Shown here piece after piece: positions 26,694 through 64,000 of a DNA stretch of 64,000 bases. Where the stretch lies: the IMG/VR virus record IMGVR_UViG_3300009130_000010, positions 38,930-102,929 of that record. One strand, written 5' to 3'. The stretch is from a virus. The first letter of the stretch is position 1, and each line of letters starts with the position of its first letter. Both the position numbers and the translations under genes were made by a program. Below the pieces are notes generated by a model. It was not told where the DNA came from and searched no databases. It was given only the letters and a program-made list of their open reading frames with translations.

Positions 26694-27836
26694 CTATAAT
26701 TCTTCTCTGTTTGTAGAGGCTTCCCAAGCCTTACTATGTAAACCACCCCCACACATTTTCCGACATTCGTAAGTACATAACTTGTGGCTCGGATCCTTCC
26801 ACGTTAAAGGTAAAATACTTTGAAAGTACTCATGATAAAATATTTCTTCTGCTGTATGTTTTTCTAAATTATTCCAACCCACACCATATTCTTTTTCTAA
26901 CTTATTATAGTGTGTCATATCTTCTTGTTTTGTTGCCGCGATATGATTACAGGGCCATAAATTCATTTCACTATCGATATACATCATACGTTGTTCTTTA
27001 AAATCACAAGTTATTTGTGATATGTCTGATGACTCGACAACTTCTCTATAAATTTTAGCACCTTCATCTGTAATGTTTAACTCTTTTGTTGTTTCAGATG
27101 ACCCGTTATTTGCGCCTTTTCTCGCTTTTCTAACATCTGTTTCTATTGTGATTGACTCAGGTGTGTTCATTGCTAACTGTTTAGCATTCTTCTTTTCAAG
27201 TTCAGCATAGTTATATTCAAAATTTCTAGTTGAAACGTGTTTGTCAAATTGCCAAAAACCCATATCTTTTGCTATTTGTTGAGCTTCTTCGACTTGATGT
27301 TTGTTATGTTCAAATACAATCATCTTCCATCTTGCTTTACCGCCAGCATCTATATAGGCTTTAGCATTAGCTATTGTTCGTTCGTGCTTAATACCTATAC
27401 GATATAACTTGTTTGTATCTTCTAAACCGTCTATACTAAATGTTATAACTTTCCGACTACCTTGCTTTTTTTCTGCTTCAGCAAAGGCTTTTCCTACTCT
27501 AGCCCAACTTTCGGGTGTTCTCATACTACCATTTGTTTCTACATCAATAATATAATTTCTTTTTGCTGTATTAATAATGATTTCTTCCCAATCCGGAGTC
27601 ATAGGAGGGTCACCATGACAACCACAAAATACCATACTAACTGGATGTTCTTTAGTAGCAATATGGTCCATATCACTTAAAAATTTATTCCATTGTGGTG
27701 CTAATATATTTTTTTGACGTAACGTAGGCCTTAAAACACTAGTTCCCATGAAATGTCGTGGGCATAATGGACAGGCAACGTTACAATATGTGGATGTTTC
27801 CACCTGAAAAATATCTATTTTCCTAAAATCAAACAT
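26694..27836 (-). CDS. Radical SAM protein with C-terminal SPASM/Twitch-like Cys cluster
   Basis: CNVACPLC (CxxxCxxC), GCHGDP, ETNGS, FSIDG, YR; C-terminal C...WPC...C..EC...C. Confidence 0.9.
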   Translation of the reverse strand: MFDFRKIDIFQVETSTYCNVACPLCPRHFMGTSVLRPTLRQKNILAPQWNKFLSDMDHIATKEHPVSMVFCGCHGDPPMTPDWEEIIINTAKRNYIIDVETNGSMRTPESWARVGKAFAEAEKKQGSRKVITFSIDGLEDTNKLYRIGIKHERTIANAKAYIDAGGKARWKMIVFEHNKHQVEEAQQIAKDMGFWQFDKHVSTRNFEYNYAELEKKNAKQLAMNTPESITIETDVRKARKGANNGSSETTKELNITDEGAKIYREVVESSDISQITCDFKEQRMMYIDSEMNLWPCNHIAATKQEDMTHYNKLEKEYGVGWNNLEKHTAEEIFYHEYFQSILPLTWKDPSHKLCTYECRKMCGGGLHSKAWEASTNREEL

Positions 27837-31812: not shown

Positions 31813-32076
31813 ATGAAAGATCAAATAATAATGTTATTGATAGGAATTCTAATCGCTTTAGGTGGTTGGAACCTAACACAAACATTTAGTCTATCAACTA
31901 CTCAAGCAGTAATTGACGACAAGGTTGATAAGTTAGAAAGACTTACTGAGAAGTTATTAGACCAGATGGACGATATGAAAGACATGGATGAAGAAATTGT
32001 TGAACAGCATCAGGACTTATTTGAACAACTTAGAAATAATCCATCAAGTACACCAAGCCCAGGATACAATTACTAA
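31813..32076 (+). CDS. Small single-TM coiled-coil protein
   Basis: IIMLLIGILIALGGW TM helix followed by heptads; closely coupled to gp6 and the giant ORF. Confidence 0.65.
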   Translation: MKDQIIMLLIGILIALGGWNLTQTFSLSTTQAVIDDKVDKLERLTEKLLDQMDDMKDMDEEIVEQHQDLFEQLRNNPSSTPSPGYNY

Positions 32077-48239: not shown

Positions 48240-48268
48240 TTGACACCCTAATCCAAAGACTATATAAT
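48240..48268 (+). promoter_or_regulatory. Consensus sigma70 promoter for the glycan/Suf locus, preceded by late motif CTAAATA at 48229-48235
   Basis: TTGACA (48240-45), 17 nt spacer, TATAAT (48263-68). Confidence 0.85.
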
Positions 48269-48306
48269 ATAGCGAGTATGTGTAAAAAACACTACTCGCT
48301 ATTTTT
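48269..48306 (+). terminator. Intrinsic terminator-like hairpin ending the tail operon
   Basis: ATAGCGAGTA-T-GTG-(TAAAAAA)-CAC-TACTCGCTAT followed by TTTT. Confidence 0.65.
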
Positions 48307-48325
48307 ATATTAGGATAACCGTATC

Positions 48326-48676
48326 ATGACTCAAGAAACAAAAGACTTATTCAAAAAAGCAAATTATCGACAAGTCCAAAATAACCAATTACAATTACTC
48401 AAAGAATTAACTGCCGAAAGGCTTACAATTGGTTATAACGGCGGAATGTTTAATATTGATCCAACTCTACTGAATCTATTAGATTTGCTTGAACGTAAAA
48501 ATTACACTACGGCTGTTATAGACGACCGTAATGACAATCCAATTGAAGTCGAAGTTAAACCTTTTATGACATTAATTTTGGACACTTATGTTCAAGAACA
48601 AAATCGAGCCCTAGCAGAAAAAAGGGAAATAGTTACAGCAAGAAGCGTGGAAGAGATATTAACATATGACGACTAA
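48326..48676 (+). CDS. Hypothetical protein
   Basis: YNGGMFNI, IDDRNDNPI; SD AGGA; first gene of the operon. Confidence 0.7.
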   Translation: MTQETKDLFKKANYRQVQNNQLQLLKELTAERLTIGYNGGMFNIDPTLLNLLDLLERKNYTTAVIDDRNDNPIEVEVKPFMTLILDTYVQEQNRALAEKREIVTARSVEEILTYDD

Positions 48677-49490
48677 AGGCGTATTAATATTTGCTAAAAA
48701 TAACGAACAGTTTAATTACATAAAGCAGGCCGAAGTGGCTGGTGTTATGGCAAAGCATTTCCTTGACGTTCCTATCTCATTAATTACTTTAGAAGAAGAT
48801 TATAAAAATAATACTAGCGATATATGGGACGAAGTAATATATCTAGATGATGTAGAAGTAGTTAATGGGCGTGGTGTTTATGTTAAAGGCAAACGTCAAG
48901 ACATTACATGGTACAATTTAAATAGGTTATTAGCTTACGATTTATCTCCATACGATGAAACAATATTAATCGACGGCGATTATTTAATACAAAATTCAGT
49001 ATTATCTAACGTGTGGGGAAGTGTTGAACCAATGTTAATGAATACTACTAGTAGGTTACCTAGTAAAAAACAAGAACATATTTACGAAAAAGTTATTACA
49101 GATGGCTATCCTAATATACATTGGTTTACTGTATGTTACTTTAGAAAATGTACTGAAGCTGAAAAATGGTTTACACTAGCAAAAGAAATCAAAGAAAACA
49201 ATGACTTTTACAGTACAACATTTAATAGTCCATATACTTTTTATAGAAATGATATAACAGCTTCTATTGCCTCTCATATTATAAATGGGTACTCAGATGG
49301 ATATTTAAAACCATTGCCCACAAGACAAATAAACAGTTATCCTCCAGAAACAATTATAGATATTAACAAAGGAAGTATAACACTTAATACAGGTGATGGA
49401 CCTGTAAGATTAAAAGATACAAACGTACATTTATTAAACAAACTCGAAATAGAAAACAACTACGATAGGTTTATGGAACTTTATGGCTAG
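48666..49490 (+). CDS. GT-A fold glycosyltransferase-like protein
   Basis: KGVLIFA, YDLSPYDETILIDGD (DxD). Confidence 0.65.
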   Translation: MTTKGVLIFAKNNEQFNYIKQAEVAGVMAKHFLDVPISLITLEEDYKNNTSDIWDEVIYLDDVEVVNGRGVYVKGKRQDITWYNLNRLLAYDLSPYDETILIDGDYLIQNSVLSNVWGSVEPMLMNTTSRLPSKKQEHIYEKVITDGYPNIHWFTVCYFRKCTEAEKWFTLAKEIKENNDFYSTTFNSPYTFYRNDITASIASHIINGYSDGYLKPLPTRQINSYPPETIIDINKGSITLNTGDGPVRLKDTNVHLLNKLEIENNYDRFMELYG

Positions 49491-50358
49491 AAAATATAAA
49501 AGACAACGAGGCTTTTTTACTATAGCACAATATAGTGAGAAGTTTGGTGACTATCCTAGAATGGCTTATGCTTTAGCATTAAGTTTAAAAGCAAGTCAAA
49601 AAGAAGCACCATACTTGGCAGTTGGCATGACAGCAGAAGACCAAAAACGTTTACCTGACAATTATAAAGAAGTGTTTGATGAAGTAGTTACTATTCCATG
49701 GACTGACGAAGCATTACCTCATAATTGGAAATTACATAACTGGTGGAAAGCATATCATATGACACCTTACAAAGAAACAATTTGTTTAGATGCTGATATG
49801 ATTTTTACACACGACCATAGTGAATGGTGGAATATATTAGCAAGACGTTTTCCATTACAAATTTGTAATAGTCCTATAACATTTAAAGGACACAAAGCAG
49901 ATGTAAGTTATTACAGTAAACAATTTGCTAGAAATAATTTATATAGAGGGTATGCGGCCTTAACTTATTTTAGACAAAGTAAAGAAGCAAGGAAATTTTT
50001 TAATGTATGCGAAGACATATTTAAAAATTGGGACGACTACAGTTGGGAATATATTAGACATAACAAAGTACGTTGGGCGGCAACAGATGAAGTGTATGGA
50101 CTTGCTATTAGATTATTAGAATGGGAAGATAAAGTTAAACCTATTCCAAGTTTTACTTTTGTACATTTAAAATCAAAATGTCAAGGACTATTAGATTATA
50201 AAGTACAAGACATAGACTGGCCAGAATACTTAATGGATAGTTGGGACGAAGATGGTAGATGTTTTATTAACAATTACTTACAAACAAAACCAGTACATTA
50301 CCACGTTAAGAAATGGTTAACAGATAAACATATTGAACGATTAGAGGAACTAGCATGA
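49483..50358 (+). CDS. GT-A fold (GT8-like) glycosyltransferase-like protein
   Basis: AYALALS, FDEVV, TPYKETICLDAD (DxD), TD, FVHLK, HYH; paralogous to the upstream gene. Confidence 0.65.
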   Translation: MARKYKRQRGFFTIAQYSEKFGDYPRMAYALALSLKASQKEAPYLAVGMTAEDQKRLPDNYKEVFDEVVTIPWTDEALPHNWKLHNWWKAYHMTPYKETICLDADMIFTHDHSEWWNILARRFPLQICNSPITFKGHKADVSYYSKQFARNNLYRGYAALTYFRQSKEARKFFNVCEDIFKNWDDYSWEYIRHNKVRWAATDEVYGLAIRLLEWEDKVKPIPSFTFVHLKSKCQGLLDYKVQDIDWPEYLMDSWDEDGRCFINNYLQTKPVHYHVKKWLTDKHIERLEELA

Positions 50359-50924
50359 AACAAGAAGACGTACAAGCATTATCCGATAATCTATTCAATG
50401 TAAATGTTAAACGTGTTGCTAAAGCTAGTCAGCATAGAGTATATTATAATATCTTTGGTCAAATATTAGCATTAAGTCCTAAGGAAATAGCAGACTATAA
50501 AGAAGAATCATTTATTCGTGTTAGTAGAGATAGATATGTAGAACTAGCTGATACCAATTTAAAATCTTGGATGGTAGATACTAGCCAGGAGCCTCCACAA
50601 TTAATAAATATTAGTACTGATGCTATGTCATCAACCAACCGTGTTCATATAACAAATGAATACAATCCGAAGCGTCTTTTTAAGTTTGATTACAATTTAA
50701 AAACTAGAAAATTAAAATTAGTTTCAAATGGTAATTTACCAGATAAGAAAACAATTTGGGTTACACCAAAAGGTCAATATTCAATTATGCTAGAACGTAT
50801 ATACTTACACTCACTAGGAGAATTTGAATACGATATTAAACCATATCTCGACACAAAAGAAATTTCATTAGTATCTAGATATAATTTAGATATGTTAGTA
50901 AGTTATAGGACAAGCAATGATTAA
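50355..50924 (+). CDS. Hypothetical protein
   Basis: Coupled ORF within the operon (ATGA overlap, SD GAGGA). Confidence 0.65.
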   Translation: MKQEDVQALSDNLFNVNVKRVAKASQHRVYYNIFGQILALSPKEIADYKEESFIRVSRDRYVELADTNLKSWMVDTSQEPPQLINISTDAMSSTNRVHITNEYNPKRLFKFDYNLKTRKLKLVSNGNLPDKKTIWVTPKGQYSIMLERIYLHSLGEFEYDIKPYLDTKEISLVSRYNLDMLVSYRTSND

Positions 50925-51837
50925 TCAATATAAAGTAAGTGACTTTGACGTTGTATACATTTCATATGACGAACCTAATGCTGAAAAACATTGGGCAGAT
51001 TTAAAAAGTAAATGCCCGTGGGCAAAACGTGTACACGGTGTTAAAGGTTTTGATGCGGCTCATAATAAAGCAGGACAAATAAGTGAAACTGATAGAGTGT
51101 TTACTATAGACGGTGATAATATGGTAAGGGCAGATTTTTTTAATGAAGTATTAGAAATAGATGACGAAGCACAAAAGGACTTTGTTTTTAGTTGGTGTGG
51201 TCACAACATAATCAACGGATTAACTTATGGAAACGGTGGCGTTAAACTTTGGCCAAAACACATCATTACTAATATGGAAAGTCACGAGAAGTCAAAAACT
51301 GAACAACACGCCGTAGACTTTTGTTGGATGGTAACTTACTTTCAAATGGCAGATACTATGAGTGATGTCTGTGTTAACGGTAGTACTGAACAGGCATTTA
51401 GAGCTGGCATACGAGAAGGTGTTAAGTTAAGTTTAGATAGAGGTATACTTCCTGACAAATGGGAATACTTAGAAAAGAATCACTATAAAAATTTACATAG
51501 ACTGGCTATATGGTGTAGCGTTGGACTTGATGTAGAATTTGGCGACTGGGCAATACTAGGTGCTAGGATGAGTACTTACATGACAAACGTTGAACGTTGG
51601 GACCATACACAAATTGCTAATTATGATTTCATGCAACCTTTCTGTAAAGAAATGTTAGAAAAATATAAAGATGTTGAAACAAGAAAACTAGCTATTAAAG
51701 AATATGGTGACTTACTTAGAAAAGATTTACAATTTAGAATTGCTGATTTAGATGCTGAATCTAGTAGATGGTTTAAAATGGTTTATGAGAATCCTACTAG
51801 ATATGGAGTTATGTTAACTGAACAAGATATAAAATGA
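50917..51837 (+). CDS. Glycosyltransferase-like protein (GT-A)
   Basis: FDVVYISYDEPNA, RVHGVKG..AH, FTIDGDN (DxD), NGLTYGNGGVKLW, AFRAG.REGVKL. Confidence 0.65.
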   Translation: MINQYKVSDFDVVYISYDEPNAEKHWADLKSKCPWAKRVHGVKGFDAAHNKAGQISETDRVFTIDGDNMVRADFFNEVLEIDDEAQKDFVFSWCGHNIINGLTYGNGGVKLWPKHIITNMESHEKSKTEQHAVDFCWMVTYFQMADTMSDVCVNGSTEQAFRAGIREGVKLSLDRGILPDKWEYLEKNHYKNLHRLAIWCSVGLDVEFGDWAILGARMSTYMTNVERWDHTQIANYDFMQPFCKEMLEKYKDVETRKLAIKEYGDLLRKDLQFRIADLDAESSRWFKMVYENPTRYGVMLTEQDIK

Positions 51838-52325
51838 AAATCTTATGTATAGGAAATGGTGTTAGTTTAAAAGATAATTTACATATTTGTAACTATCCAT
51901 ATGATTTTAAACTAGGAACTAAACGACAGTACAAAAGATTTAAAGATTTAGATTTTATTGCTGTAGCAGATAAGCAACCAGCAGAAGTATTAAGCGAAGA
52001 ATATAAAGGAAAAATTATTACTAAATGGAATACTAAAGAAAACTTTATTATTCCAAAAGAAGCAGACGATGATGACATTACAGGAACATTACAAATGAAA
52101 TATGCTGTTGAGTTAGGCGGAACAATTATTCATACAGTAGGGTTTGACTGTTTAAAAAATCGTATTGAGAAAGACGAAACGTGGGAATGGACAAAACCAG
52201 GCCCATGGGATATGACCAAACAACAACAAAGAAAATGGGATCAGGCATTAATGGACACATGGAAATCAAAAATGAAAGCCATCGAACACAGCAATCTCAA
52301 TATACAATGGAGACATTTCTTATGA
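51834..52325 (+). CDS. MptE / sialyltransferase-like Rossmann protein
   Basis: ILCIGNGVS at the N-terminus, TG..., IHTVGFD near the C-terminus. Confidence 0.45.
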   Translation: MKILCIGNGVSLKDNLHICNYPYDFKLGTKRQYKRFKDLDFIAVADKQPAEVLSEEYKGKIITKWNTKENFIIPKEADDDDITGTLQMKYAVELGGTIIHTVGFDCLKNRIEKDETWEWTKPGPWDMTKQQQRKWDQALMDTWKSKMKAIEHSNLNIQWRHFL

Positions 52326-53044
52326 TAGTAGACGTAACTGAAGTAGAACATTATACAGATAACCTATTTAAATTTAAAACAACAAGACCAGCGACATATA
52401 AATTTAGAGCAGGTGAGTTTGTGATGGTAGGATTAGATAGTGATGATCGTTCTATTCCTAAAAGGCCTTATAGCTTTTGTAATGGTCCTAATGAAGATTA
52501 CTTAGAATTTTATAGTATCAAATTACCAGACGGCCCACTTACAAGTAAATTACAACATATTAAAGAAGGTGATAAATTATTCGTAGGTGACAAAACTACA
52601 GGAACATTAGTAACAGACAACATATGGCCAGGTGGCATACCAAATAGTAACTTATGGCTTATAGCAACCGGAACTGGTATTGCTCCTTTTATGAGTTTAT
52701 TACGTGATCCAGAAATATATGGAATGTTTAATCTAGTAAATGTGTGTTGGACTACACGAACAATAAAAGATCAAGATGCTTATAAATCTATTTTAGAAAC
52801 AATGGATTGTAACTATATTCCTACAGTTACACAAGAAGACTTTCACAGACGTGGACGAATTACAGATTTAATTAAAGAAGGCAAAGCATTTCAAGAAACA
52901 TCACCCGAAAAAGATAAAGTTATGCTATGCGGTAGTATGGATTTTAATATCGAAATGAGAGACTACCTTGAAGAACGTGGTTGGCTAGAAGGTAGCAAAT
53001 CACAAGTTGGTTCATTTGTAGTAGAGAAAGCATTTGTTAAATGA
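52322..53044 (+). CDS. fpr: Ferredoxin/flavodoxin-NADP+ reductase
   Basis: FRAGEFVM, RPYS, GPLTSKL, ATGTGIAPF, GRIT, MLCGS, FVVEKAF; start moved to ATG 52322 (ATGA overlap). Confidence 0.92.
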   Translation: MIVDVTEVEHYTDNLFKFKTTRPATYKFRAGEFVMVGLDSDDRSIPKRPYSFCNGPNEDYLEFYSIKLPDGPLTSKLQHIKEGDKLFVGDKTTGTLVTDNIWPGGIPNSNLWLIATGTGIAPFMSLLRDPEIYGMFNLVNVCWTTRTIKDQDAYKSILETMDCNYIPTVTQEDFHRRGRITDLIKEGKAFQETSPEKDKVMLCGSMDFNIEMRDYLEERGWLEGSKSQVGSFVVEKAFVK

Positions 53045-53481
53045 GAAAAATAAGTCACAGAGGAAATTTAAATGGGCCTAATCCTGAAAGGGAGAACAGT
53101 CCACATTATATTTTTGAGGCACTAGCAGAAGGATTTGATGTTGAAATTGATGTATGGTATCAAAACGGAATGATACAACTAGGGCATGATAAACCTATAT
53201 ATACTGTTAACAAGAAAATGTTAAACATGAATGGCTTATGGTGTCATGCTAAAAATGTTGAAGCATTAGAGTATATGACTAACAACGACATTAATTGTTT
53301 TTGGCATCAAGGAGATGATGTTACGTTAACAAGTAAGGGTTATATATGGACACACTCTGACTACAATACTTACACACCAAAATCAGTAATATGTCATATG
53401 GAGAGACCTAGTATAGAAGAACTAGAAGTATATAAAAATTGTTATGGTTTATGTAGTGATTACATCGGAGTTATAGAATGA
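53041..53481 (+). CDS. Minimal GDPD / PI-PLC-like phosphodiesterase
   Basis: ISHRGN...ENS, DVEIDV, LGHD, WCHAKN, FWHQ.D..TLTS, CSDY. Confidence 0.75.
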
Positions 53482-54923
53482 AAAAAGAAACAGTAAAAAC
53501 AGTTGATAAATTCTCCGAGTATAAGCACGGCTGGTCAACTGATATAGAATCAGATACAATTCCAAAAGGCATAAACGAAGATATTGTTAAAATAATATCT
53601 TCTAAAAAGAATGAACCGCAATGGATGTTAGATTGGCGTCTTAAAGCCTATAGAGCTTGGATTAAAATGGAAGAGCCTAATTGGGCTAACGTTGATTTTC
53701 CTCAAATAGATTATCAAGATTTATATTATTATTCAGCACCTAAGAGTATGGCAGATGGTCCTAAGAGTTTAGATGAAGTAGACCCTAAACTATTAGAAAC
53801 ATACAAAAAATTAGGAATACCATTAGCAGAACAAAAAAAGTTAGCAGGTGTGGCAGTAGATGTTGTATTTGATAGTGTGTCAGTTGCTACAACATTTCAA
53901 GACGAATTAGAAAAAGCAGGAGTAATATTTTGTCCAATATCAGAAGCAATTCAGAAGCACCCAGAATTAGTTAAAAAATACATTGGTTCTGTTATACCAA
54001 TACGTGATCATTTTTATGCGGCGTTAAATTCTGCTGTATTTACAGATGGATCATTTGTGTATATTCCACCAGGTGTAAAATGTCCTATGGAATTATCAAC
54101 ATATTTTAGAATTAATGCTGAAAAAACAGGTCAATTTGAAAGGACATTAATAATTGCTGACAAAGGAAGTTATGTAAGTTATTTAGAAGGATGTACAGCA
54201 CCAATGAGAGATGAGAATCAATTACACGCCGCCAATGTAGAATTAGTTGCTCTTGATGATGCTGAGATAAAATATTCAACAATTCAAAATTGGTACCCAG
54301 GTGACGATCAAGGAAAAGGTGGCGTATATAATTTAGTTACTAAACGAGGAGCCTGCCGAGGACGTAACAGTAAAATAAGTTGGACCCAAGTAGAAACAGG
54401 TTCAGCAGTTACGTGGAAGTATCCTAGTTGTATATTACAAGGAGATAACTCTTCGGGTGAATTTTATTCTGTTGCTGTAACAAACAATTACCAACAAGCA
54501 GATACAGGAACTAAAATGATTCATATGGGTAAGAATACAAAAAGTAGAATAATCTCAAAAGGTATTTCCTGTGGACATTCACAAAACACTTACAGAGGAT
54601 TAGTTAGTATTAAGAAGATGGCCGATAAGGCTCGCAATTATACACAATGCGATTCATTACTTATAGGCGACAAGTGTGGAGCACATACTGTTCCATACAT
54701 AGATAATAATTGTAAGACTTCAGTATCAGAACACGAAGCGTCAGCATCTAAAATTAGTGATGACCAATTATTTTACATAAGACAACGAGGCATACCAGAG
54801 GAACAAGCTGTTAGTTTAATTGTTAATGGGTTTTGTAAAGAAGTATTACAAAAATTACCAATGGAGTTTGCTATGGAGGCACAGCAACTCGTAGGAATTA
54901 GTTTAGAGGGGAGCGTAGGATAA
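53478..54923 (+). CDS. sufB: Fe-S cluster assembly scaffold SufB
   Basis: [79 protein letters not shown]. Confidence 0.97.
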
Positions 54924-55351
54924 TGTCAAATAGATTTCATTTAGCCATACTAGCAGGCGATCTAGAAGTAGCAATAAAATTTTATTGTGATGTGTTAGGT
55001 TGTAAAAGAGGTATGGCAGAATTTAAATACCCCGATGCTTGGGTAGATATTAACTTCTGGGGTAATGAGTTAACACTACACGCATCAGATCCAAAAGATA
55101 AAAATGCTGGCGAACGACATAATGTTGATATGGGTAATGTATCTGTACCTCATTTTGGTGTACACTTAGACAATGATGTATTTCAAAATTTAAAACAGCG
55201 AATAATAGATAACGGAATAGAATTTTTAGATCCTCCCTTCATTAGGTTTGAAGGCGAGAGTAGACAACAAGAAACAATGTTTATCGAAGACCCTAACGGT
55301 AACTGTTTAGAAATTAAAACAATGGCGAATCCAGATGAATTATTTAGATAA
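54923..55351 (+). CDS. VOC / glyoxalase family protein
   Basis: FHLAI, FY..VLG, PHFG, TMFIEDPNGN.LEIK. Confidence 0.88.
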   Translation: MSNRFHLAILAGDLEVAIKFYCDVLGCKRGMAEFKYPDAWVDINFWGNELTLHASDPKDKNAGERHNVDMGNVSVPHFGVHLDNDVFQNLKQRIIDNGIEFLDPPFIRFEGESRQQETMFIEDPNGNCLEIKTMANPDELFR

Positions 55352-55739
55352 AATTACAGAGTATAAAAATAACATTGAAACGTTACGAGCAATTGAAAGT
55401 TTAGAAGTTTACCGATGGTTGATTTCGCTCGGGGCAAAATTAAACTTCGATCCTTTAAGTGAAGAAAAACGTATTGAAGAAAACAGAGTAAGTCGTTGCC
55501 AGTTTGATTTATTTGTTGATTGGGAAGATGGTAAATTTAAAGCATGGAGCAACGCCATGATAGCTGGAGGTTATGCTTACATACTAATAGATATTTTTAA
55601 TTCTCCAGGAGCAGAAAAAATCACAATAGAACAATTTGAAGAAATTAAACTAGACGAATTACTAACAATGAATAGAAAAACTGGATTCTATCAAATGATC
55701 GAGATAATGATAAAAAGGATACCGAATGTTAAAAATTGA
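55335..55739 (+). CDS. sufE: SufE-like sulfur acceptor
   Basis: YRWLISLG.KL, ENRVSRCQ (conserved Cys), SNAMIAGG, LTMNRKTGF. Confidence 0.75.
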   Translation: MNYLDKITEYKNNIETLRAIESLEVYRWLISLGAKLNFDPLSEEKRIEENRVSRCQFDLFVDWEDGKFKAWSNAMIAGGYAYILIDIFNSPGAEKITIEQFEEIKLDELLTMNRKTGFYQMIEIMIKRIPNVKN

Positions 55740-56460
55740 AAACTTAAAAGTATCAATAGATGGTAAAGAAATAATAAAAGACTTAACCCTTAATATTCCA
55801 AAAGGTGAAGTTCATGCTTTAATGGGTCCTAACGGATCAGGTAAAAGTACATTGGCTAATGTGTTAGCTGGGCGAACTGGTTATGATATTGATGGAACAA
55901 TTTCTTATCAAGGAAAAGATTTATTAACTTTACCAATAGAAGAAAGAGCTCAAGAAGGTTTGTTTTTAGCATTTCAATATCCTGTTGAAGTTCCTGGCGT
56001 TAATACAAGTAACTTTTTAAGATCAGCACTAAATCAAACTCGTAGACATAGAAAAGAAGCAGAATTAGACCCTTTAGAATTTGTTGCAAAAATACAACAA
56101 ACAGCAGAAACCCTTAACATTGACAAAACAATACTTAATAGAGAACTAAATGTAGGATTCTCAGGGGGCGAAAAAAAGAAAAATGAAGTATTACAAATGT
56201 CTATCTTAGAACCTACGTTAGCAATTCTAGATGAGACTGATTCTGGTTTAGATATAGACGCTTTAAGAATCGTAGCAGACGGTGTAAATGCTTTAAAAAA
56301 TAAAGATAGATCTTTTTTAATTATTACACATTACCAACGTTTACTAGATTACATTAAACCAGACTTTGTTCATGTTTTAATGGATGGGAAAATAGATAGA
56401 ACAGGATGTGAAGCACTAGCTTTAGAATTAGAAAAGAGTGGTTATGGACATACAAAATAA
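55726..56460 (+). CDS. sufC: Fe-S cluster assembly ATPase SufC
   Basis: MGPNGSGKST, FLAFQYPVEVPGV, GFSGGEKK, LDETDSGLDIDAL, ITHYQRLLDYI.PD.VH. Confidence 0.97.
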   Translation: MLKIENLKVSIDGKEIIKDLTLNIPKGEVHALMGPNGSGKSTLANVLAGRTGYDIDGTISYQGKDLLTLPIEERAQEGLFLAFQYPVEVPGVNTSNFLRSALNQTRRHRKEAELDPLEFVAKIQQTAETLNIDKTILNRELNVGFSGGEKKKNEVLQMSILEPTLAILDETDSGLDIDALRIVADGVNALKNKDRSFLIITHYQRLLDYIKPDFVHVLMDGKIDRTGCEALALELEKSGYGHTK

Positions 56461-57016
56461 TTATAAAAAAGTTATAAACTTAAAAGAAGATTCAGTATTA
56501 AATTATAACTTAAAAGAAGACTCAATTGCGGTTATATTTTTTTATAATTATTCTGGCGTTGCGACAACTGTTAATATAAACTTAGATACAAATTCATCTT
56601 GCGAGTTGTATGGTATATTTAAAAACACAGATGAGAAAACAGATGTTGTTACTAACGTAGTACACAATGGTCATAATTCAAAGTGTAATCAAGACTTTAG
56701 ATTTATAAACAAGAATAGTGTTAGTTCTTTTGAGGGTTTAATTTCTGTTCCTAAAGATATTACTAATTGTGAAAGTCATATGTCTAACAAAAATCTTTTA
56801 TTAGATACTACATCTAAAGCATTCGCAAAACCAGAATTAAACATTTTAAATTCTAATGTTGTTTGTTCACATAGCAGTACAACTGGAGCATTAGATGAAG
56901 AACAATTATTTTATCTTCAAAGCAGAGGAATATCATATGAGGACTCTATTGATATGCTCGTAGAAGCATTTTCCCAAGACATTAAAAATAAAATGGAAGG
57001 AACAATCAAACAATGA
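56444..57016 (+). CDS. sufD: SufD-like protein, short (C-terminal beta-helix only)
   Basis: NKNLLL, AKPELNI, CSHSSTTG.LDEEQLFYLQSRGI, MLVEAF; ~190 aa, roughly half of a typical SufD. Confidence 0.8.
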   Translation: MDIQNNYKKVINLKEDSVLNYNLKEDSIAVIFFYNYSGVATTVNINLDTNSSCELYGIFKNTDEKTDVVTNVVHNGHNSKCNQDFRFINKNSVSSFEGLISVPKDITNCESHMSNKNLLLDTTSKAFAKPELNILNSNVVCSHSSTTGALDEEQLFYLQSRGISYEDSIDMLVEAFSQDIKNKMEGTIKQ

Positions 57017-57744
57017 AAATAGCTGTTTGTGTTAGTGGACAATTACGAGGTCACTGGGAAGAATCTATTAAAACGTGGCCGTTAATGTTTGATAAAGAAT
57101 CCGAGGTTGATTACTTTGTACATACATGGACAAATAAAACGGCCCCTAATGCTATAGCACATAAAAATAAAGACGACGAAGAAAAAAGTATTAGTAAGCA
57201 AGAACTTAACAAACTTAAAAAAATATTAAAGCCTAAAAAAATATTAATAGAAGATCCTATAGAATTTAAAACTGAAAACGAATGGGCAGTATTTGACCCA
57301 AATTATCATAGTCAATTTTACGGTGTTATGATGGCTTGTAATTTAAAACAACAATACGAACATGATTTTGCTTTACAATATGATGTTTGTGTAAGAATGA
57401 GATTCGATAATTACGTTGAAAAAAAATATCATATATCACAAATGAAAATGGGCGAAGCTCATATCATTCATCAAACGTTTGATAAAAATCATAGATATAG
57501 ATGTAGTGATGTTTACTTTGCTACAACAAGTTTTGACTATGACCGTATGTGTGATTTTTATAGTTGTATACCTAGATATAAAAAAGATTGGTTTGTAATT
57601 AACGACGACAAAACATACGGACCTGAACACGTTTTAGCATTTCATATGAAAGCTAATAATATAAAACCTGTACAAACTTATATGCCAATTAAATTAAAAC
57701 GAGAAGAAAAACATTATAGCGGAGGTGCCCATGAGATCACCTAA
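57013..57744 (+). CDS. Putative glycosyltransferase-like protein (KIAVC.SGQ.R family)
   Basis: KIAVCVSGQLR, DYFVHTW, SQFY, YD..VRMRFD, SD, PE. Confidence 0.55.
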   Translation: MKIAVCVSGQLRGHWEESIKTWPLMFDKESEVDYFVHTWTNKTAPNAIAHKNKDDEEKSISKQELNKLKKILKPKKILIEDPIEFKTENEWAVFDPNYHSQFYGVMMACNLKQQYEHDFALQYDVCVRMRFDNYVEKKYHISQMKMGEAHIIHQTFDKNHRYRCSDVYFATTSFDYDRMCDFYSCIPRYKKDWFVINDDKTYGPEHVLAFHMKANNIKPVQTYMPIKLKREEKHYSGGAHEIT

Positions 57745-58456
57745 GGTAGCCATTTGCTGGAGTGGGCAATTACGAACTGGCTTACGAGCTGTTCCGTACT
57801 TGTTAAGATTTTTTGAAAATATAAAAAACATTGATCATTTTTATCATAGTTGGGATAACGATCAGCCAAAAGAAGATTGGGATAAACTTAATGAACTTTT
57901 AGATCCAGTTGAGTCGTTTATTGAAACACCTTGGAAACATAGAGGCTTTGCTGGTAATATGTTACATAGTATACAACAATCTAATTGGCTTAAACGACAA
58001 CATGAACTTAAAAATAAATTTAGATATGACATTGTAATTAAATGTAGATTTGATTTATTAATACCAATACACAAACGTTGGATATACCCTGAAGTAGTTG
58101 ATAGAAGCATATATTATAGCATAGGCAACAACGGACTAGTGCTAACTGATTTTGCTACACACGGCTTTAGTGATTTAATTTATTGGGGTAATAGTCATGC
58201 TATGGATATCATTAGTGACTCTTATAGATATTATAATTGGACATTAATGCCAAAACAATTAACTTGCTTAACTGGTGGTAATGTAGACCCTGAAGACACA
58301 ATGTATTCTCCAGGTACAATAATGTATCAACTAGGACAAAAATATAATTTAAGAATGATACAAATAGAACCACAACTAGGAGAAACACTTTGGCGAACAT
58401 CAGTTGTTGACTTAGATCCATATCTAGACTGGAATGAAATTAGAGAGGCATACTAA
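57731..58456 (+). CDS. Paralog of the upstream KVAIC.SGQLR-family protein
   Basis: KVAICWSGQLR, DHFYHSW, YDIVIKCRFD, FSDLIYWG; ATG 57731 with SD GGAGGT. Confidence 0.55.
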   Translation: MRSPKVAICWSGQLRTGLRAVPYLLRFFENIKNIDHFYHSWDNDQPKEDWDKLNELLDPVESFIETPWKHRGFAGNMLHSIQQSNWLKRQHELKNKFRYDIVIKCRFDLLIPIHKRWIYPEVVDRSIYYSIGNNGLVLTDFATHGFSDLIYWGNSHAMDIISDSYRYYNWTLMPKQLTCLTGGNVDPEDTMYSPGTIMYQLGQKYNLRMIQIEPQLGETLWRTSVVDLDPYLDWNEIREAY

Positions 58457-58899
58457 TGATCATCAGTACTGTTAACTTGTTCTGTTATTATAATATACCG
58501 GGAGCAGATAAAGAAATGTTGTTTGGGTTTAAAAATCATACACACGCTACTAAAGAAACAGATACTAATACAGCATTACATAGTTTTATTGTATACAAAG
58601 ATTGTTATAGAATATTTTATGATCAATGGATTGATAGCGGAGTAGTACAAAAGAAATTTCTAGATAAAGTTGTTGTGCCAGAAATACCAGACTTGCCTGA
58701 TAACTGTAAGCGTTTTTCTTACAATAACATTTATACAGAGGCGGCTACTTACATACAGCAACTTACTGGTACAAGATTTTATCCAAAGTATTTTAATCAT
58801 ACAACATATAAAGAAGGAGATGTGTTGCCAGAACTAAAAGAAAAACTTAGAACAATATTTAAAGAATACAACGACAAACTAGGAATTAAAAATGAGTAA
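58456..58899 (+). CDS. Hypothetical protein
   Basis: Coupled ORF (TAATG overlap). Confidence 0.55.
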   Translation: MIISTVNLFCYYNIPGADKEMLFGFKNHTHATKETDTNTALHSFIVYKDCYRIFYDQWIDSGVVQKKFLDKVVVPEIPDLPDNCKRFSYNNIYTEAATYIQQLTGTRFYPKYFNHTTYKEGDVLPELKEKLRTIFKEYNDKLGIKNE

Positions 58900-59752
58900 G
58901 TTATTAGTAGTAGGTGACAGTTGGTGCTTCGGTAGTGAAATTAGAAACCCTGATTTAAGTGTGGATATTAAAGACTGGGATATACAAAATAACAGTTATC
59001 GCATACCTAGAATTTGGCCTACATTACTTGCTAAAGAATTAGGTACAGGTTTAACTAACTTATCTTACCCGGCGGCAAGTAATGATCGTATATTACGACT
59101 TACTGAAAGTTGGTTGTATGAAAATTATATAAGTCGAAATAGAAGTACTAATGAACTTAAAGTTATAATTGGTTGGACAAGTCCAGAACGTAAAGACTTT
59201 TTCTATACTGACCCCCATAATAAAAGTACACCAAACTGGACAACTATATGGCCACAACAAGCAGGATTTGATTATGTACAACCAGGCATGAATGATTTCT
59301 TTAAACTATATGTAACTTACTTGTGGCATCAACGTGAAGCATTAAATAGGTACGTTCATCAAGTAACAGCAATGGAAAATTTATGTAAGGCACATGACAT
59401 CGAATTGCTGATGTTTCAAGCGTTCTATGACGCAGGCAAAGGCATACACGGAGCAAAAGAAAATATGGATGACTTTATAGATTATAAAAGTCCAGGTTAT
59501 ATAAATGATGAATTTGAGAAAGCAGAGCTTGGAGAAAAACATCCAGGCTGGCATCATCATTACAGTAATGAAATGAATAAGACAATGTGGGAATGCCTAA
59601 ATCAAAAAACATTTATGACAGAAAGTTTCTTTGGTTATATGAAAAAGAAAGGCCTCGATAAAACAATTATAGGACAGCATCCAAATGAATTAGGACATAA
59701 ACTTTGGGCTGAACATATTAAAAAATATATAAAGGATAATTTAAAATGGTAA
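58892..59752 (+). CDS. SGNH/GDSL-like hydrolase or acyltransferase
   Basis: GDSW..G.E, WP, NLS...ASNDRI, IGWT..ER, HPNELGH..WA. Confidence 0.75.
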   Translation: MSKLLVVGDSWCFGSEIRNPDLSVDIKDWDIQNNSYRIPRIWPTLLAKELGTGLTNLSYPAASNDRILRLTESWLYENYISRNRSTNELKVIIGWTSPERKDFFYTDPHNKSTPNWTTIWPQQAGFDYVQPGMNDFFKLYVTYLWHQREALNRYVHQVTAMENLCKAHDIELLMFQAFYDAGKGIHGAKENMDDFIDYKSPGYINDEFEKAELGEKHPGWHHHYSNEMNKTMWECLNQKTFMTESFFGYMKKKGLDKTIIGQHPNELGHKLWAEHIKKYIKDNLKW

Positions 59753-60525
59753 AAAACGATCTCAACATTCATACAGTTTATAATGCTGGCGATAGTTTTG
59801 CTACTGGTGTTGGATTACATGATCCAAAAGTTTCATCATACCCTGTTAAGATAGCAGAAGCATTTGATTCTAAATTAATAAGTTTAGCTAGACCAGGTTG
59901 TTGTAATTTTAGTATTAGTTTAATGATAAAATATTTCGTTGACAACTTTGACGAAGATGCATTTTATATAATATCTACTACTAATGAAGATAGATTACAT
60001 TGGCTTAAACCTGGTATAGTGTATAGTAACGAACAGGAAGTAACAATTCAAGATTTAAATTATGAAGATTATAAAGAAAACTTATTAACTGACTTACCGT
60101 TTAATAGTAACAATATTCTCCAAAGTGAAACTTGTAGCAATATATTATTATTTAAAGAAGGTGGCATACCAACTAACAAAACATTAAAAAGCGAACCAGA
60201 GTCTAGACTTAATACATTGTGTTCATATGTTAAAGAAGTTCATGATAGTAAAATTAAACGATACGAAGATTGTGGCATTTTTGCCACACAATTACATAGA
60301 TTAAATCAACTAACATCAAATTGGGTATTGTTTACAATGTGGCACGAGTTAGAAGAGATGTTTCCTAATAACTTTTTACAAGTAGATTACGGTATTGTTA
60401 GCAAAGAATATCCAGATGATCTAGGCAGTGGACACTTTAATAGAACAGGTCATAGAGTAATAGCAAGAAAATTTGAAGAATGGTATACAAAAAACTATGA
60501 TGTGTCGGATAAATTGTTTAAATAA
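59746..60525 (+). CDS. SGNH/GDSL-like hydrolase or acyltransferase
   Basis: GDSFATG, LARPGCCN, GHFNRTGH..IA. Confidence 0.7.
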   Translation: MVKNDLNIHTVYNAGDSFATGVGLHDPKVSSYPVKIAEAFDSKLISLARPGCCNFSISLMIKYFVDNFDEDAFYIISTTNEDRLHWLKPGIVYSNEQEVTIQDLNYEDYKENLLTDLPFNSNNILQSETCSNILLFKEGGIPTNKTLKSEPESRLNTLCSYVKEVHDSKIKRYEDCGIFATQLHRLNQLTSNWVLFTMWHELEEMFPNNFLQVDYGIVSKEYPDDLGSGHFNRTGHRVIARKFEEWYTKNYDVSDKLFK

Positions 60526-60545
60526 TACAAAGGAGAACATCAACA

Positions 60546-61319
60546 ATGCCAATAAAACTTTTATATACAACAGGCGACAGCTGGACCTATGGCGAAGAAT
60601 TAGGTGATGTAACAGCAGTTGATAACTTGAATCATAAATTTTATAACAGTTGGCCTTGGCACGTTTCACAACATTATAATATTCCACAGCTAATAAATGA
60701 TGCCAGAGGTGGTGGCTCCAATGCTAGGATGTATAGGAGAACAATAGAATTTTTACAATCATACAAAGGTAAATTCTCTGAATTAGCTATTATTGTTGCT
60801 TGGTCAACATACGAGCGTACTGAATTTTCTTTACCAGCAGAAGAGAAATATCATGACGGTGAGAAATTTGTTGAATGGACTGAACGACAATTCTTCCATT
60901 GGCATCACAGTAATGATCCAGAATCTATGGATTTTAGTGGATTCTTGAGTCCAGGACAAAATATGGCATTGAAGTCATTACATAAAAGTTGGACATTACT
61001 ACGAGACCCTTCAGGTGATGCTCCTGCTTTAAAAAACTTAATGTGGTCATTACAAGAAATTTGTAAAACAAATAAAATAAAACTTCATCAATTTTTTGCA
61101 TTAACTAATCCCGAATTTGAAAAAGAGTACAGCGAGTATGAACCAATTTGGGCCGAACAAGTCAAATACTATCAACCTGCTTTTGCTAGTAAAACATTTG
61201 GTGCTGGTGAAGGTATAACTGGATTTGTTTCTAGGGTTGGTATTGGCTCGCACCCAAACGAAAAAGGACATAAAGAAATAGCAAACTTTATAGTAGATAA
61301 GATAGGAGATAAAATATGA
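60546..61319 (+). CDS. SGNH/GDSL-like hydrolase or acyltransferase
   Basis: GDSWTYGEE, SWP, NDA.GGGSN.R..R, WS..ER, HPNEKGH..IA. Confidence 0.75.
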   Translation: MPIKLLYTTGDSWTYGEELGDVTAVDNLNHKFYNSWPWHVSQHYNIPQLINDARGGGSNARMYRRTIEFLQSYKGKFSELAIIVAWSTYERTEFSLPAEEKYHDGEKFVEWTERQFFHWHHSNDPESMDFSGFLSPGQNMALKSLHKSWTLLRDPSGDAPALKNLMWSLQEICKTNKIKLHQFFALTNPEFEKEYSEYEPIWAEQVKYYQPAFASKTFGAGEGITGFVSRVGIGSHPNEKGHKEIANFIVDKIGDKI

Positions 61320-61438
61320 GGTTGTTAAGACGTATAAAGAAGTTCTTTACTGATATCTATTTAAAAATTAAAATGGAAATAGCATACAGAAAGAAACTTA
61401 AAGAAATTAAAAAACGAGATCCGTTTATATACAAATGA
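61316..61438 (+). CDS. Small basic protein, 40 aa
   Basis: Below the ORF-track cutoff. MRLLRRIKKFFTDIYLKIKMEIAYRKKLKEIKKRDPFIYK; SD AGGAG; ATGA overlaps with both neighbours. Confidence 0.7.
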   Translation: MRLLRRIKKFFTDIYLKIKMEIAYRKKLKEIKKRDPFIYK

Positions 61439-62163
61439 AAATAGTAGTAGCAATGGCTGGCCTTGGAACACGTTTTCAAGAAGCAGGACATACATATCCT
61501 AAACCGTTAATCCGTACGGGCAACACAACTATGATTCAAAACGTGTATTATAGTTTAGCCTGGCCTGGTGATTGGTACTTTATAGCATTGAAAGAACACC
61601 TTGATCAATTTAACTTTATGTTACCGTTATTAGAAAGTATGGGAAGTGTTACAGTAATAGATAAACCAACACGTGGTGCGGCTGAAACATTACAACAATG
61701 TAAAGAAATAATGAATAGTAGTGGTCCTTTTATTAGTGTTAATTGTGATCAAGTATTTGAATGGGACACAACAGAACTACAAGAAAAAATGAAAGTAGAA
61801 CCAGATGCTAGTTACATGACAACTTACGATTCACTAGACGAACAAAGACATAGTTTCGCTCTTACAAATGATAATGACATAGACGTTTGGCATTGTTGTG
61901 AAAAAACAAGACTTGGTTATCATTGTAATAATGCTACTACTGGATTCTATCATTTCGCTAATGGCGAAGTATATAATGAAGCAACAACTAAATTATTATC
62001 CAAACCACCCGAGTATGGTGAATATTATGTGTCATCTGTTTATAACGAGTTAATTGCTAAAAAACATATTGTAAAACAATACAAAGTACACGCAAAAACA
62101 TTTTGGCCTGTTGGTACACAACCTGACTGGTTACATTATACACACAGGCATTTTAGACGATGA
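61435..62163 (+). CDS. Sugar-phosphate nucleotidyltransferase (NTP_transferase / RmlA-GlmU-like)
   Basis: MAGLGTRF...YPKPLI, TRGAAET, NCDQ, EK, ATTGFYHF, GEYYVS..YN, VGT..D. Confidence 0.85.
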   Translation: MKIVVAMAGLGTRFQEAGHTYPKPLIRTGNTTMIQNVYYSLAWPGDWYFIALKEHLDQFNFMLPLLESMGSVTVIDKPTRGAAETLQQCKEIMNSSGPFISVNCDQVFEWDTTELQEKMKVEPDASYMTTYDSLDEQRHSFALTNDNDIDVWHCCEKTRLGYHCNNATTGFYHFANGEVYNEATTKLLSKPPEYGEYYVSSVYNELIAKKHIVKQYKVHAKTFWPVGTQPDWLHYTHRHFRR

Positions 62164-62873
62164 TAACTTTATACACTAATGGTGATAGCTGGACACAAGG
62201 AGACGAACTAGGTCTACCATACAAAGAACACGAAACAGAAGCAGAACAATACTATTGGAGTTGGCCTTGGCAGTTACACAAACTACTAGGTACTACAATG
62301 TGTTTTAATGATGCTGTTAAAGGTACAAGTAACAATAGAATATTTCGCAGAACTACAAATTTTATTAGAAATTATAACAAACATTATAACCCAAGAGAAC
62401 TAATAGTTGTTGTATGTTGGACAACATTAGATAGAGATGAGATTCCTATTGATGTAAACGATACTGGTTGGCATATTCCTATACAAATGTATGGCGTTAA
62501 ATTGCCCAACCATAGTGAGATAAGTAAACTTGATGCTACTACAACAGAAGCATTAAATCAAATTCACAAACCTTACACTATGACTCTCCCTGGGATTAAA
62601 GTTAGATCAGAGTTACAATATTCACGTATGTGGAACTTAAAACAAATTTGTGATAGTTTAGGAATAAAATTAATTCAATCTTGGGCTTTAGACATACCGC
62701 AGTTTGACCCAACACATAACGATTTTGTAAAACAATGGATAGATGATATAAAATATCTGCCAGAGATATTCATTAACTATTGTAGGAAAAAGAATTACCC
62801 ACTCGGTCCAGGAGGACATTGTTATAAAGATGGGCATGAAGGTTGGGCAAAGTACATATATGAAAACATTTAA
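62160..62873 (+). CDS. SGNH/GDSL-like hydrolase or acyltransferase
   Basis: NGDSWTQGDE, SWP, NDA..GTSNNRIFR, WT..DR, GGHC...GH..WA. Confidence 0.72.
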   Translation: MITLYTNGDSWTQGDELGLPYKEHETEAEQYYWSWPWQLHKLLGTTMCFNDAVKGTSNNRIFRRTTNFIRNYNKHYNPRELIVVVCWTTLDRDEIPIDVNDTGWHIPIQMYGVKLPNHSEISKLDATTTEALNQIHKPYTMTLPGIKVRSELQYSRMWNLKQICDSLGIKLIQSWALDIPQFDPTHNDFVKQWIDDIKYLPEIFINYCRKKNYPLGPGGHCYKDGHEGWAKYIYENI

Positions 62874-63168: not shown

Positions 63169-63494
63169 AGATATTTGATTTTAAGAAAATGTTTAAAGGC
63201 TGGTTTGTTGGAGACTTTGAAAATACGGCCATGTCTGCTAATTTTGAAGTAGCATATCATACACATACTAAAGGAGAATTCCACCAAGACCACTTTCATA
63301 AAGAACAGCGTGAAGTAACAATGATTATTGAAGGCGAAATGATTTGTAATGGACAGCATTTGAAAGCAAATGATATTTTTGTTATTGAACCTTATGAAGT
63401 AAGTATCTGTGAATTCTTGACAGACGTTAAAGTAATAGTAGTAAAAAATATTTGTAACACAAGTGACAAATATTCATTTGACATTAAGAATTAA
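63165..63494 (+). CDS. Cupin-fold protein (possible sugar isomerase/epimerase)
   Basis: KGWFVGDF, H.H....E.T....G, DIF.IEP.E, VVK....SDKY. Confidence 0.75.
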   Translation: MKIFDFKKMFKGWFVGDFENTAMSANFEVAYHTHTKGEFHQDHFHKEQREVTMIIEGEMICNGQHLKANDIFVIEPYEVSICEFLTDVKVIVVKNICNTSDKYSFDIKN

Positions 63495-63506
63495 AGAAGG
63501 TATAAT
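63478..63506 (+). promoter_or_regulatory. Consensus sigma70 promoter, probably producing a leaderless mRNA
   Basis: TTGACA (63478-83), 17 nt spacer, TATAAT (63501-06); ATG at 63513. Confidence 0.8.
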
Positions 63507-63512
63507 AACACT

Positions 63513-64000
63513 ATGGAACTATACAGAACAATAGCACCCGACGATCATTTTAGTTGTAATTTCTTTTTAATGAGTCGGACAAATGTTAAAGAAGCCGCAG
63601 AAGCATTGGCAATTGGCCAAAGTATTGGTAATCCTTCTGTTAGAAGCAAATATGAAACACCAGAAATGATGGAAAATCATAGTGCTAAAATTATTGCTGA
63701 CCCAGACGACCTAGCAAATATCAAAGCAGGCGTTGTTGAAATTGCTTGGCCATATAGAAATATTGATTGGTATGCTGATGGTATTGCCCAATTAATGTGT
63801 ACTGTAATGGGTGGACAAATGGACATTGATATTATACAACAATGTCATTGGATTGACATTCATATTAATAGACTTAAAGCAGACTTGTCAGTACCATCAT
63901 ATGGATTAAGTGGCTTTAGAGATCATGTTCAATCATATGGCAAACCATTACTTGGTACTATTGTTAAACCAAAAACTGGACTTACTCCTGAGACATTAAA
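63513..64000 (+). CDS. RuBisCO large-subunit-like protein, 5' part; runs off the window end
   Basis: Not in the ORF track. MELYRT...EAAEALAIGQSIGNP...VEIAWP..NID...LMCTVMGGQMDID...PSYGLSGFR...GKPLLGTIVKPKTGLTPETL; PLLGTIVKPKTGL matches RuBisCO PLLG.TIKPKLGL (Lys175/Lys177 region). Confidence 0.85.
   Translation, partial: MELYRTIAPDDHFSCNFFLMSRTNVKEAAEALAIGQSIGNPSVRSKYETPEMMENHSAKIIADPDDLANIKAGVVEIAWPYRNIDWYADGIAQLMCTVMGGQMDIDIIQQCHWIDIHINRLKADLSVPSYGLSGFRDHVQSYGKPLLGTIVKPKTGLTPETL

Follow-up and report, generated by a model that had tools for sequence, protein, structure and literature searches.

How much of the machinery that assembles iron-sulfur (Fe-S) clusters can a phage encode? In marine T4-like phages, whose genomes are often rich in radical-SAM genes, single Fe-S genes are known, namely those for an A-type carrier, IscU or SufE (PMC5332604, PMC8940887); the Fe-S auxiliary genes described from phages have been single carriers or relays. 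The question is raised by a block of seven overlapping open reading frames (ORFs) at 52322-57016, on the + strand of a 64,000-nucleotide (nt) window of viral DNA. The window is the whole stretch analysed and corresponds to bases 38930-102929 of the 102,929-nt IMG/VR record IMGVR_UViG_3300009130_000010 (G000), for which CheckV gives a completeness of ~25%; window coordinates are used unless G000 or another contig is named. The block is likely a phage-encoded SUF-type Fe-S cluster assembly module, in which scaffold, ATPase, sulfur relay and reductase stand together. An earlier reading of the letters only (the sequence-only reading) had listed fpr, sufB, VOC, sufE, sufC and a short sufD here as overlapping or abutting genes. 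Pfam and NCBIfam matches and the coordinates bear this out: all seven ORFs lie where they had been placed, and every junction between them overlaps, by 1-17 nt.

The order of the suf genes is B-VOC-E-C-D, preceded by the reductase gene and by a gene for a 146-aa protein (ORF146). The alignment of SufB with its E. coli counterpart (5AWF_A; 667 bits) runs over the whole length of the protein. The residue-by-residue alignment shows that it retains the equivalents of Y224, R226 and N228, on the strand to which SufE docks, as well as the persulfide acceptor C254 and Q285, W287, K303, C405, H433 and E434, residues whose functional roles are taken from published work (PMC13485665). The N-terminal CxxCxxxC motif is absent from the phage protein in this alignment. 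SufC matches E. coli SufC with 296 bits, and its ABC motifs are complete (Walker A GPNGSGKST, Q-loop, FSGGEKK signature, Walker B ILDETDSGLD, H-motif). SufE scores 28.5 bits against the E. coli-type equivalog NF006792, below the cut-off of 160, and a phmmer search with SufE alone returned no PDB match, so that a profile was needed. When the profile of nine viral SufEs is compared with 1MZG and 11MP_E, the invariant C55 (RCQ) falls on the catalytic C51 (GCQ) of E. coli SufE. Judged by such alignments, the key residues are intact in all the Suf proteins of the window.

SufD is present in a shortened form, here called mini-SufD, which consists of the C-terminal half of the β-helix and the C-terminal helices. 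It aligns to residues 279-400 of E. coli SufD, where C143-S-H145 corresponds to C358-S-H360, with the essential His H360, and both C143 and H145 are invariant in 16 members of the family. With 137 bits against TIGR01981 (cut-off 222), the protein is not a full-length SufD of ~420 aa. Its start is most likely ATG 56444, which yields 190 aa as in the homologues, with GTG 56438 as an alternative; there is no room for a longer form because the upstream sufC overlaps the start. The AlphaFold model of the single chain (predicted local distance difference test score, pLDDT, 89) has a 12-strand β-helix and two C-terminal helices, and its best Foldseek matches are the SufB and SufD chains of 5AWF. A length-limited search returned ~44 mini-SufD clusters of ~190 aa at 46-99% identity, followed by cellular SufDs at 34%. 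When the length limit was lifted, a profile search of 1.84 billion representatives gave two representatives of ~190 aa (324 and 310 bits), whereas other non-fragment matches reached 148 bits at most and full-length SufDs 113-134 bits; no close full-length parent was found in this search. On the strength of these comparisons, mini-SufD is a discrete, phage-specific family. It is found on twelve IMG/VR contigs in four arrangements: sufB-VOC-sufE-sufC...mini-sufD (contigs L112 and L113), sufB-mini-sufD, sufC-mini-sufD, and mini-sufD...sufB-sufC-sufS. SufE touches SufB and SufC and not the N-terminus of SufD (PMC13485665), and for this reason the loss of the N-terminal half of SufD need not block sulfur delivery. 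By natural deletion, mini-SufD delimits the part of SufD that selection has kept, and so bears on the role of the missing N-terminal half.

The gene between sufB and sufE encodes a protein assigned to the VOC superfamily by its PF00903 match, its fold and its invariant His and Glu residues. The AlphaFold2 model (pLDDT 86) shows the VOC fold, with 3RRI as the best PDB match. Invariant positions are H6, C27, E49, H53, H66, H77, H81 and E130, among which H6, E49, H77/H81 and E130 are candidate metal ligands. The protein is neither a glyoxalase I (TIGR00068, 19.8 bits against a cut-off of 120) nor FosB (NF003152, 21.5 against 171). Clustered at 90% identity, its family falls into more than 1100 groups, most of them from marine metagenomes, and the top ESM Atlas clusters carry the label Viruses; neither the VOC protein nor SufE has a tblastn match in 50,697 GenBank phage records. 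The two genes are closely linked. When viral loci were collected starting from the VOC protein, 21 of 25 had a divergent, phage-type SufE directly downstream, and when they were collected starting from SufE, 23 of 25 had the VOC gene directly upstream (the two sets of 25 contigs largely overlap). An A-type carrier gene directly follows sufE in nine of the SufE-started loci, forming VOC-SufE-SufA trios, and this VOC-SufE(-SufA) cassette is probably the source of many of the 'sufE' and 'sufA' counts in viromes. In a further cluster of 76 metagenomic members (P0300; 228 aa), the VOC protein carries a BolA-like domain as a C-terminal fusion (PF01722 with PF00903). BolA proteins are a family of Fe-S trafficking factors. 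The linkage in 23 of 25 loci and the BolA fusion point to this very abundant family of marine proteins as a candidate for a new Fe-S factor, whose role would be coupled to SufE, with the handling of metal (iron) as one possibility. For the SUF pathway, the source of the iron is still being sought.

The first gene of the block encodes a reductase that matches the Rhodobacter capsulatus FPR (2BGI) with 215 bits and displays the subclass I motifs RxYS, GTGIAP and C-terminal VEKAFV; against the E. coli Fpr equivalog NF008178 it scores 103 bits, below the cut-off of 390. A longer form starting at GTG 52181 was rejected, since the family match begins only at residue 51 of that form and the ATG at 52322 overlaps the stop codon of the upstream ORF (ATGA). 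An adrenodoxin-type 2Fe-2S ferredoxin (121 aa, Cx5CxxC...C) is encoded on the - strand at G000:32962-33327, beside the gene of the major head protein and 5.6 kb upstream of where the window begins. This ferredoxin, encoded 19 kb upstream on the same contig, is probably the natural partner of the reductase.

The contig that carries the block is viral. Genes for TerL, major head protein, prohead protease, tail sheath, tail tube and head-tail adaptor lie upstream on it, and the window itself holds those for baseplate proteins gp5, gp6 and gp25 and for SbcCD. The gp6 homologue is closest to those of jumbo myoviruses such as Atu_ph07, PA5oct and K64-1, and ~50 proteins are common to the record and the complete 328-kb terminal-repeat (DTR) genome G001 (IMGVR_UViG_3300020477_000990; 328,149 nt). 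The record is a genuine myovirus fragment from an uncultured marine giant phage, with TerL, capsid, sheath and baseplate genes, and host contamination is therefore very unlikely. A chimera, in which the assembler joined bacterial suf genes to phage DNA, is a real risk for such loci, for MaAM05/PhiMa05, the sole GenBank 'phage' in which several suf genes stand together, has been argued to be a bacterial fragment (PMC13623518). In the present case it is scarcely credible: start and stop codons overlap on both sides of the module, which is bound to each flanking gene by a 4-nt ATGA-type overlap, and the G+C content is uniform across the surrounding region. The gene order is also unlike that of the sampled cellular operons (sufB-sufC-full sufD-sufS, without VOC, SufE or Fpr). 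Moreover, mini-SufD and VOC-SufE occur on viral contigs, the ESM Atlas giving viral top clusters for VOC; the same parts are found in the complete genome G001, and a coherent virion module resides on the same contig.

A dozen or more contigs in IMG/VR carry the module. Compared with the window, G001 has a SufB of 82% identity, a SufC of 39%, a 192-aa mini-SufD of 54% and an Fpr of 43%, and it also encodes SufS, an A-type carrier and a canonical SufE. L112 and L113 share the order sufB-VOC-sufE-sufC and carry a mini-SufD 73% identical to that of the window; between the window and L112, identities for VOC, SufE, SufC and mini-SufD amount to 67-80%. Homologues of SufS (62-84% identity) are present on six further viral contigs, two of which also hold mini-SufD. 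The sequence-only reading had noted that sufS and sufA are missing from the window, which is correct, and had concluded that the phage supplies its own scaffold and electrons while borrowing the desulfurase of the host. The first half of that conclusion fits the intact, phage-borne genes, the reductase and the radical-SAM-rich relatives. The second half is not supported, given a record only ~25% complete and the SufS of G001 and the six contigs, because of which the lack of sufS and sufA in a quarter of a genome says little. It had also proposed a count of radical-SAM genes. G000 has one, and G001 has 22 matches (20 above the Pfam cut-off), clustered at 68.8-85.8 kb, where six lie among suf and fpr genes, and at 291-296 kb; such relatives fit the self-supply of Fe-S clusters and electrons. 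In L112 (IMGVR_UViG_3300007512_001547; region L112:5055-10010), genes for a 557-aa protein with a TonB-dependent-receptor Plug domain and a B12-binding radical-SAM enzyme, together with three unknown genes, are found between sufC and mini-sufD; thyX lies upstream, and UDP-glucose dehydrogenase-like and PurF-like genes lie downstream.

The genes are also maintained by selection. The ratios of nonsynonymous to synonymous substitution rates (dN/dS; Nei-Gojobori) among viral copies are 0.04-0.17 for sufB, 0.02-0.08 for VOC, 0-0.09 for sufE, ~0.25 for sufC and 0.06-0.26 for mini-sufD; these values are rough, as dS is high and the genomes are AT-rich, and all are far below 1. All five genes are under purifying selection, and relaxed selection, which the sequence-only reading had named, together with failed complementation, as an argument against the module, is not borne out across this range (0.0-0.26). 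As to expression, the module lies in the middle of a long co-directional gene string preceded by a perfect sigma-70 consensus (Table 1), which is likely the promoter of the string. The only other 12/12 match within 47-64 kb is found at 63478-63506, ahead of the last ORF, and between the two matches no terminator-like site was found on the + strand. Co-transcription of the module within one long unit thus appears most likely. The late-promoter motif of T4, TATAAATA, shows no enrichment, with 4 copies observed where 14.7 would be expected; the module contains none. Immediately after the consensus, at 48273-48308, stands an 8-bp inverted repeat (AGCGAGTA...TACTCGCT) followed by ATTTTTAT; this terminator- or attenuator-like hairpin has the promoter before it and the first gene of the string after it.

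In the proposed mechanism, SufB, two SufC and the 190-aa mini-SufD would form a slimmed SufBC2D-like scaffold. SufE, with its VOC neighbour, would carry persulfide sulfur from a SufS to C254 of SufB, the SufS being either phage-encoded, as in the relatives, within the three quarters of the genome that the record lacks, or that of the host. Fpr, probably with the 2Fe-2S ferredoxin of the contig, would transfer electrons from NADPH to cluster assembly, to the recipient Fe-S enzymes or to both, and the clusters would be delivered chiefly to Fe-S enzymes of the phage itself, above all radical-SAM proteins. The virus probably makes the Fe-S cofactor itself during infection: with scaffold, ATPase, relay and reductase encoded here, and desulfurase and carrier in complete relatives, the cofactor pathway would be largely virus-encoded. 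A more far-reaching version, put forward tentatively, is that marine giant phages run a streamlined SUF system in which a half-size SufD completes SufB-SufC2 and a metal-binding VOC protein, fused to BolA in some cases, works with SufE as a new Fe-S biogenesis factor, for example as an iron donor or as a gatekeeper between SufE and SufB; neither part is known from the SUF systems of cells.

The clusters might instead serve general maintenance of the host, in that the module would keep host Fe-S enzymes of respiration, the tricarboxylic acid cycle and nucleotide synthesis going under iron limitation or oxidative stress after host shut-off, a function that overlaps in part with self-supply. As single genes, sufA, iscU, sufE and SufB are common in reports of viral auxiliary metabolic genes and have been interpreted in this manner (PMC8940887, PMC5332604), the fragment has a single radical-SAM gene, and many viral contigs have the VOC-SufE pair but no SufBCD in its vicinity. 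However, the complete relative G001 joins its Suf set with ~20 radical-SAM genes, several of them interleaved, and a B12 radical-SAM gene lies inside the L112 cluster; in addition, a host should already own sufBCDS, as the sampled alphaproteobacteria do. Maintenance as the main function is accordingly regarded as unlikely. The short SufD might also point to a takeover, with mini-SufD and phage SufC, instead of building clusters, docking onto the SufB and SufC of the host so as to redirect or block them, or acting as a repurposed ATP motor. The trimming of SufD down to its SufC-docking helices and the interface half of the β-helix would suit such a role, and three contigs (L118, L119 and L121) carry only sufC and mini-sufD within the flanks that were fetched. 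But mini-SufD is accompanied in the window by a complete SufB that has every essential residue, a SufC that is intact and a SufE that retains the catalytic Cys, and the invariant equivalent of H360 and the neighbouring Cys, both retained, would be needless in a protein that merely docks or blocks, which makes a takeover quite improbable.

Several observations weigh against the assembly module as described. Neither SufS (Aminotran_5) nor SufA (Fe-S_biosyn) was found anywhere in the 102,929-nt record, and its sole radical-SAM gene (Table 1) is the only Fe-S client so far recognised there. About 230 N-terminal residues of SufD are missing, and the pairing of mini-SufD with SufB is a prediction. 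The VOC protein is not known to act in Fe-S metabolism, and 3RRI, the nearest solved structure, is uncharacterised. ORF146, which resembles genes of sugar clusters, separates fpr from sufB, so that adjacency within this accessory island is not proof of a shared function, and in L112 the fpr gene is not adjacent to the suf genes. The totals of promoter-like and terminator-like sites do not exceed those of shuffled sequences, the promoter and the operon being consensus matches, and the assignment to a host (see below) relies on genome traits of neighbours in a tree. Regarding ORF146, which the sequence-only reading had called GDPD-like, no Pfam or NCBIfam family matches at E <= 0.01 and phrog_34507 is the only match; the GDPD label was rejected for lack of a domain match and traced to one GenBank cyanophage record. 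Its homologues among GenBank phages are confined to T4-like cyanophages (35-47% identity), in which they sit among genes for HAD hydrolase, thymidylyltransferase, heptose isomerase and glycosyltransferase. ORF146 probably belongs with the surrounding sugar/glycan genes rather than with Suf.

The origin of the module was approached through SufB and SufC trees, also proposed in the sequence-only reading, and proved mosaic. A SufB match was found in 205 of 301 sampled Alphaproteobacteria, with 69-78% identity among the 150 matches listed; two of these genomes, G045 and G245, are unpublished, and none of the conclusions depends on them. In the SufB tree, the window, G001 and marine sequences form one clade, which groups (SH-aLRT 93) with the SufBs of genomes of 1.2-1.6 Mb and 27-32% G+C as well as with marine clusters of very high abundance; L112 is part of a second viral clade, whose branch lies outside the alphaproteobacterial cluster. 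In the SufC tree, by contrast, the window and L112 fall inside the alphaproteobacterial cluster, and G001 has its SufC in a viral clade that is separate and divergent. The idea that a host operon was transferred once and cleanly was rejected, because the SufBs of the window and L112 lie in different clades despite similar VOC, SufE, SufC and mini-SufD, and because G001 shares the SufB clade of the window yet has a SufC from a different, divergent clade. Since the two trees disagree, the modules are mosaics that were put together and reshuffled inside phages, and do not go back to one recent capture of an operon. In cellular genomes with a SufB of 73-76% identity, SufD is full-length, in open frames of ~446 aa or more, at 33-37% identity. 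From the genome size, the G+C content and the abundance in marine metagenomes of the grouping SufBs, we infer a small-genome, low-GC marine alphaproteobacterium, SAR11-like, as host. If so, the module bears on the use of iron and sulfur during infection in the most abundant bacteria of the ocean.

Among known systems, the E. coli-type SUF pathway (SufABCDSE; 5AWF/2ZU0; SufBC2D-SufE 11MP, PMC13485665) shares with the phage proteins the key residues of SufB, SufC and SufE and the H360 equivalent of SufD. It differs in that its SufD has ~423 aa, as against 190 aa in the phage protein, which is devoid of the N-terminal domain and half of the β-helix. The phage cluster further differs in its SufB without N-terminal CxxCxxxC, in a VOC gene between sufB and sufE, in having no sufS or sufA in the cluster, and in being virus-borne. 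The sampled alphaproteobacterial sufBCDS operons, whose SufB is 69-78% identical, represent the type to which phage SufB and SufC belong; there, however, a full-length SufD (~446-aa frames, 33-37% identity) is followed by sufS, and no VOC, SufE or Fpr match lies within the ~6-10 kb of flank examined. The SMS system (SmsB-SmsC; 9H78; PMC12442378) resembles the phage module in that its scaffold is reduced, the subunits of SufB/D type being fewer or shorter, and gives a significant fold match. SmsB, however, is a single full-size SufB-like subunit that acts with no SufD, whereas the phage keeps a separate, shortened SufD, and phage SufB scores 191 bits against the SmsB cut-off of 650.

Compared with the marine phages that carry single Fe-S genes, the present phage has the scaffold proteins SufB, SufC and SufD and a reductase, and not just a carrier or relay. 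Freshwater amoC-phages have also been reported to carry SufB as a gene derived from the host (bioRxiv 10.64898/2026.06.18.733297). The Microcystis 'phage' MaAM05/PhiMa05 (MW495066.1), filed as a jumbo phage, likewise has several suf genes, with a SufB of 69% identity, and its viral nature is disputed (PMC13623518). The record ends (L175, MW495066.1 267786-273195) in a canonical sufB-sufC-sufD(451 aa)-sufS-iscU operon beside panB/panC, which agrees with the published doubt, whereas the contig studied here has a full virion module and phage-specific Suf parts. In the literature searched, the coverage of which was incomplete, no description was found of a multi-gene phage SufBCDE module, of mini-SufD or of the VOC-SufE pair. 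The view that a multi-gene Suf set is unusual in a phage consequently holds against that literature and the GenBank phages, although IMG/VR has a dozen or more contigs with the module. The traits that set the module apart most, which had escaped the sequence-only reading, are the phage-specific mini-SufD, the fixed pairing of VOC with SufE and the mosaic descent of SufB and SufC.

Table 1. Position of the Suf module and of associated features in the window.
Feature	Position	Strand	Evidence or remark
Radical-SAM enzyme	26694..27836	-	PF04055, 30.4 bits
Sigma-70 consensus TTGACA-17-TATAAT	48240..48268	+	12/12 match; just before gene string
String of 18 co-directional genes	48326..60525	+	Unbroken; 17/17 junctions overlap, by 1-20 nt; Suf module mid-string
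Ferredoxin-NADP(+) reductase, bacterial subclass I (Fpr/FPR type), 240 aa	52322..53044	+	PF00175 (NAD_binding_1), PF00970 (FAD_binding_6)
ORF146, 146-aa protein, phrog_34507	53041..53481	+	PHROG match, E 5e-29
SufB scaffold subunit, 481 aa	53478..54923	+	NF008773, 902 bits (cut-off 717)
VOC-fold protein (glyoxalase/bleomycin/dioxygenase superfamily), 142 aa	54923..55351	+	PF00903, 34.6 bits (cut-off 20.6)
SufE sulfur-relay protein, 134 aa, divergent phage type	55335..55739	+	PF02657, 57.7 bits (cut-off 27)
SufC ABC-type ATPase, 244 aa	55726..56460	+	TIGR01978, 341 bits (cut-off 213)
Mini-SufD, 190 aa (192 aa from GTG 56438)	56444..57016	+	PF01458, profile positions 56-232 only

The region around the module had been labelled a glycan locus, a label that rests mainly on weak or unknown families at 57013-62873. 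Downstream of the Suf block these include two phrog_13607 paralogues (57013-57744 and 57725-58456), three DUF6071 proteins (58892-59752, 60546-61319 and 62160-62873) and a nucleotidyltransferase (61435-62163). After the baseplate genes comes a single ORF of 4330 aa (32076-45068), which presumably encodes a giant fibre or structural protein; in G001 the same position is taken by an ORF of 3986 aa, with 27% identity. The ORF at 63478-63998, which is cut by the contig end, gives weak matches to the N-terminal and catalytic domains of the RuBisCO large chain (E ~4e-4 to 6e-4) and may encode a RuBisCO-like protein.

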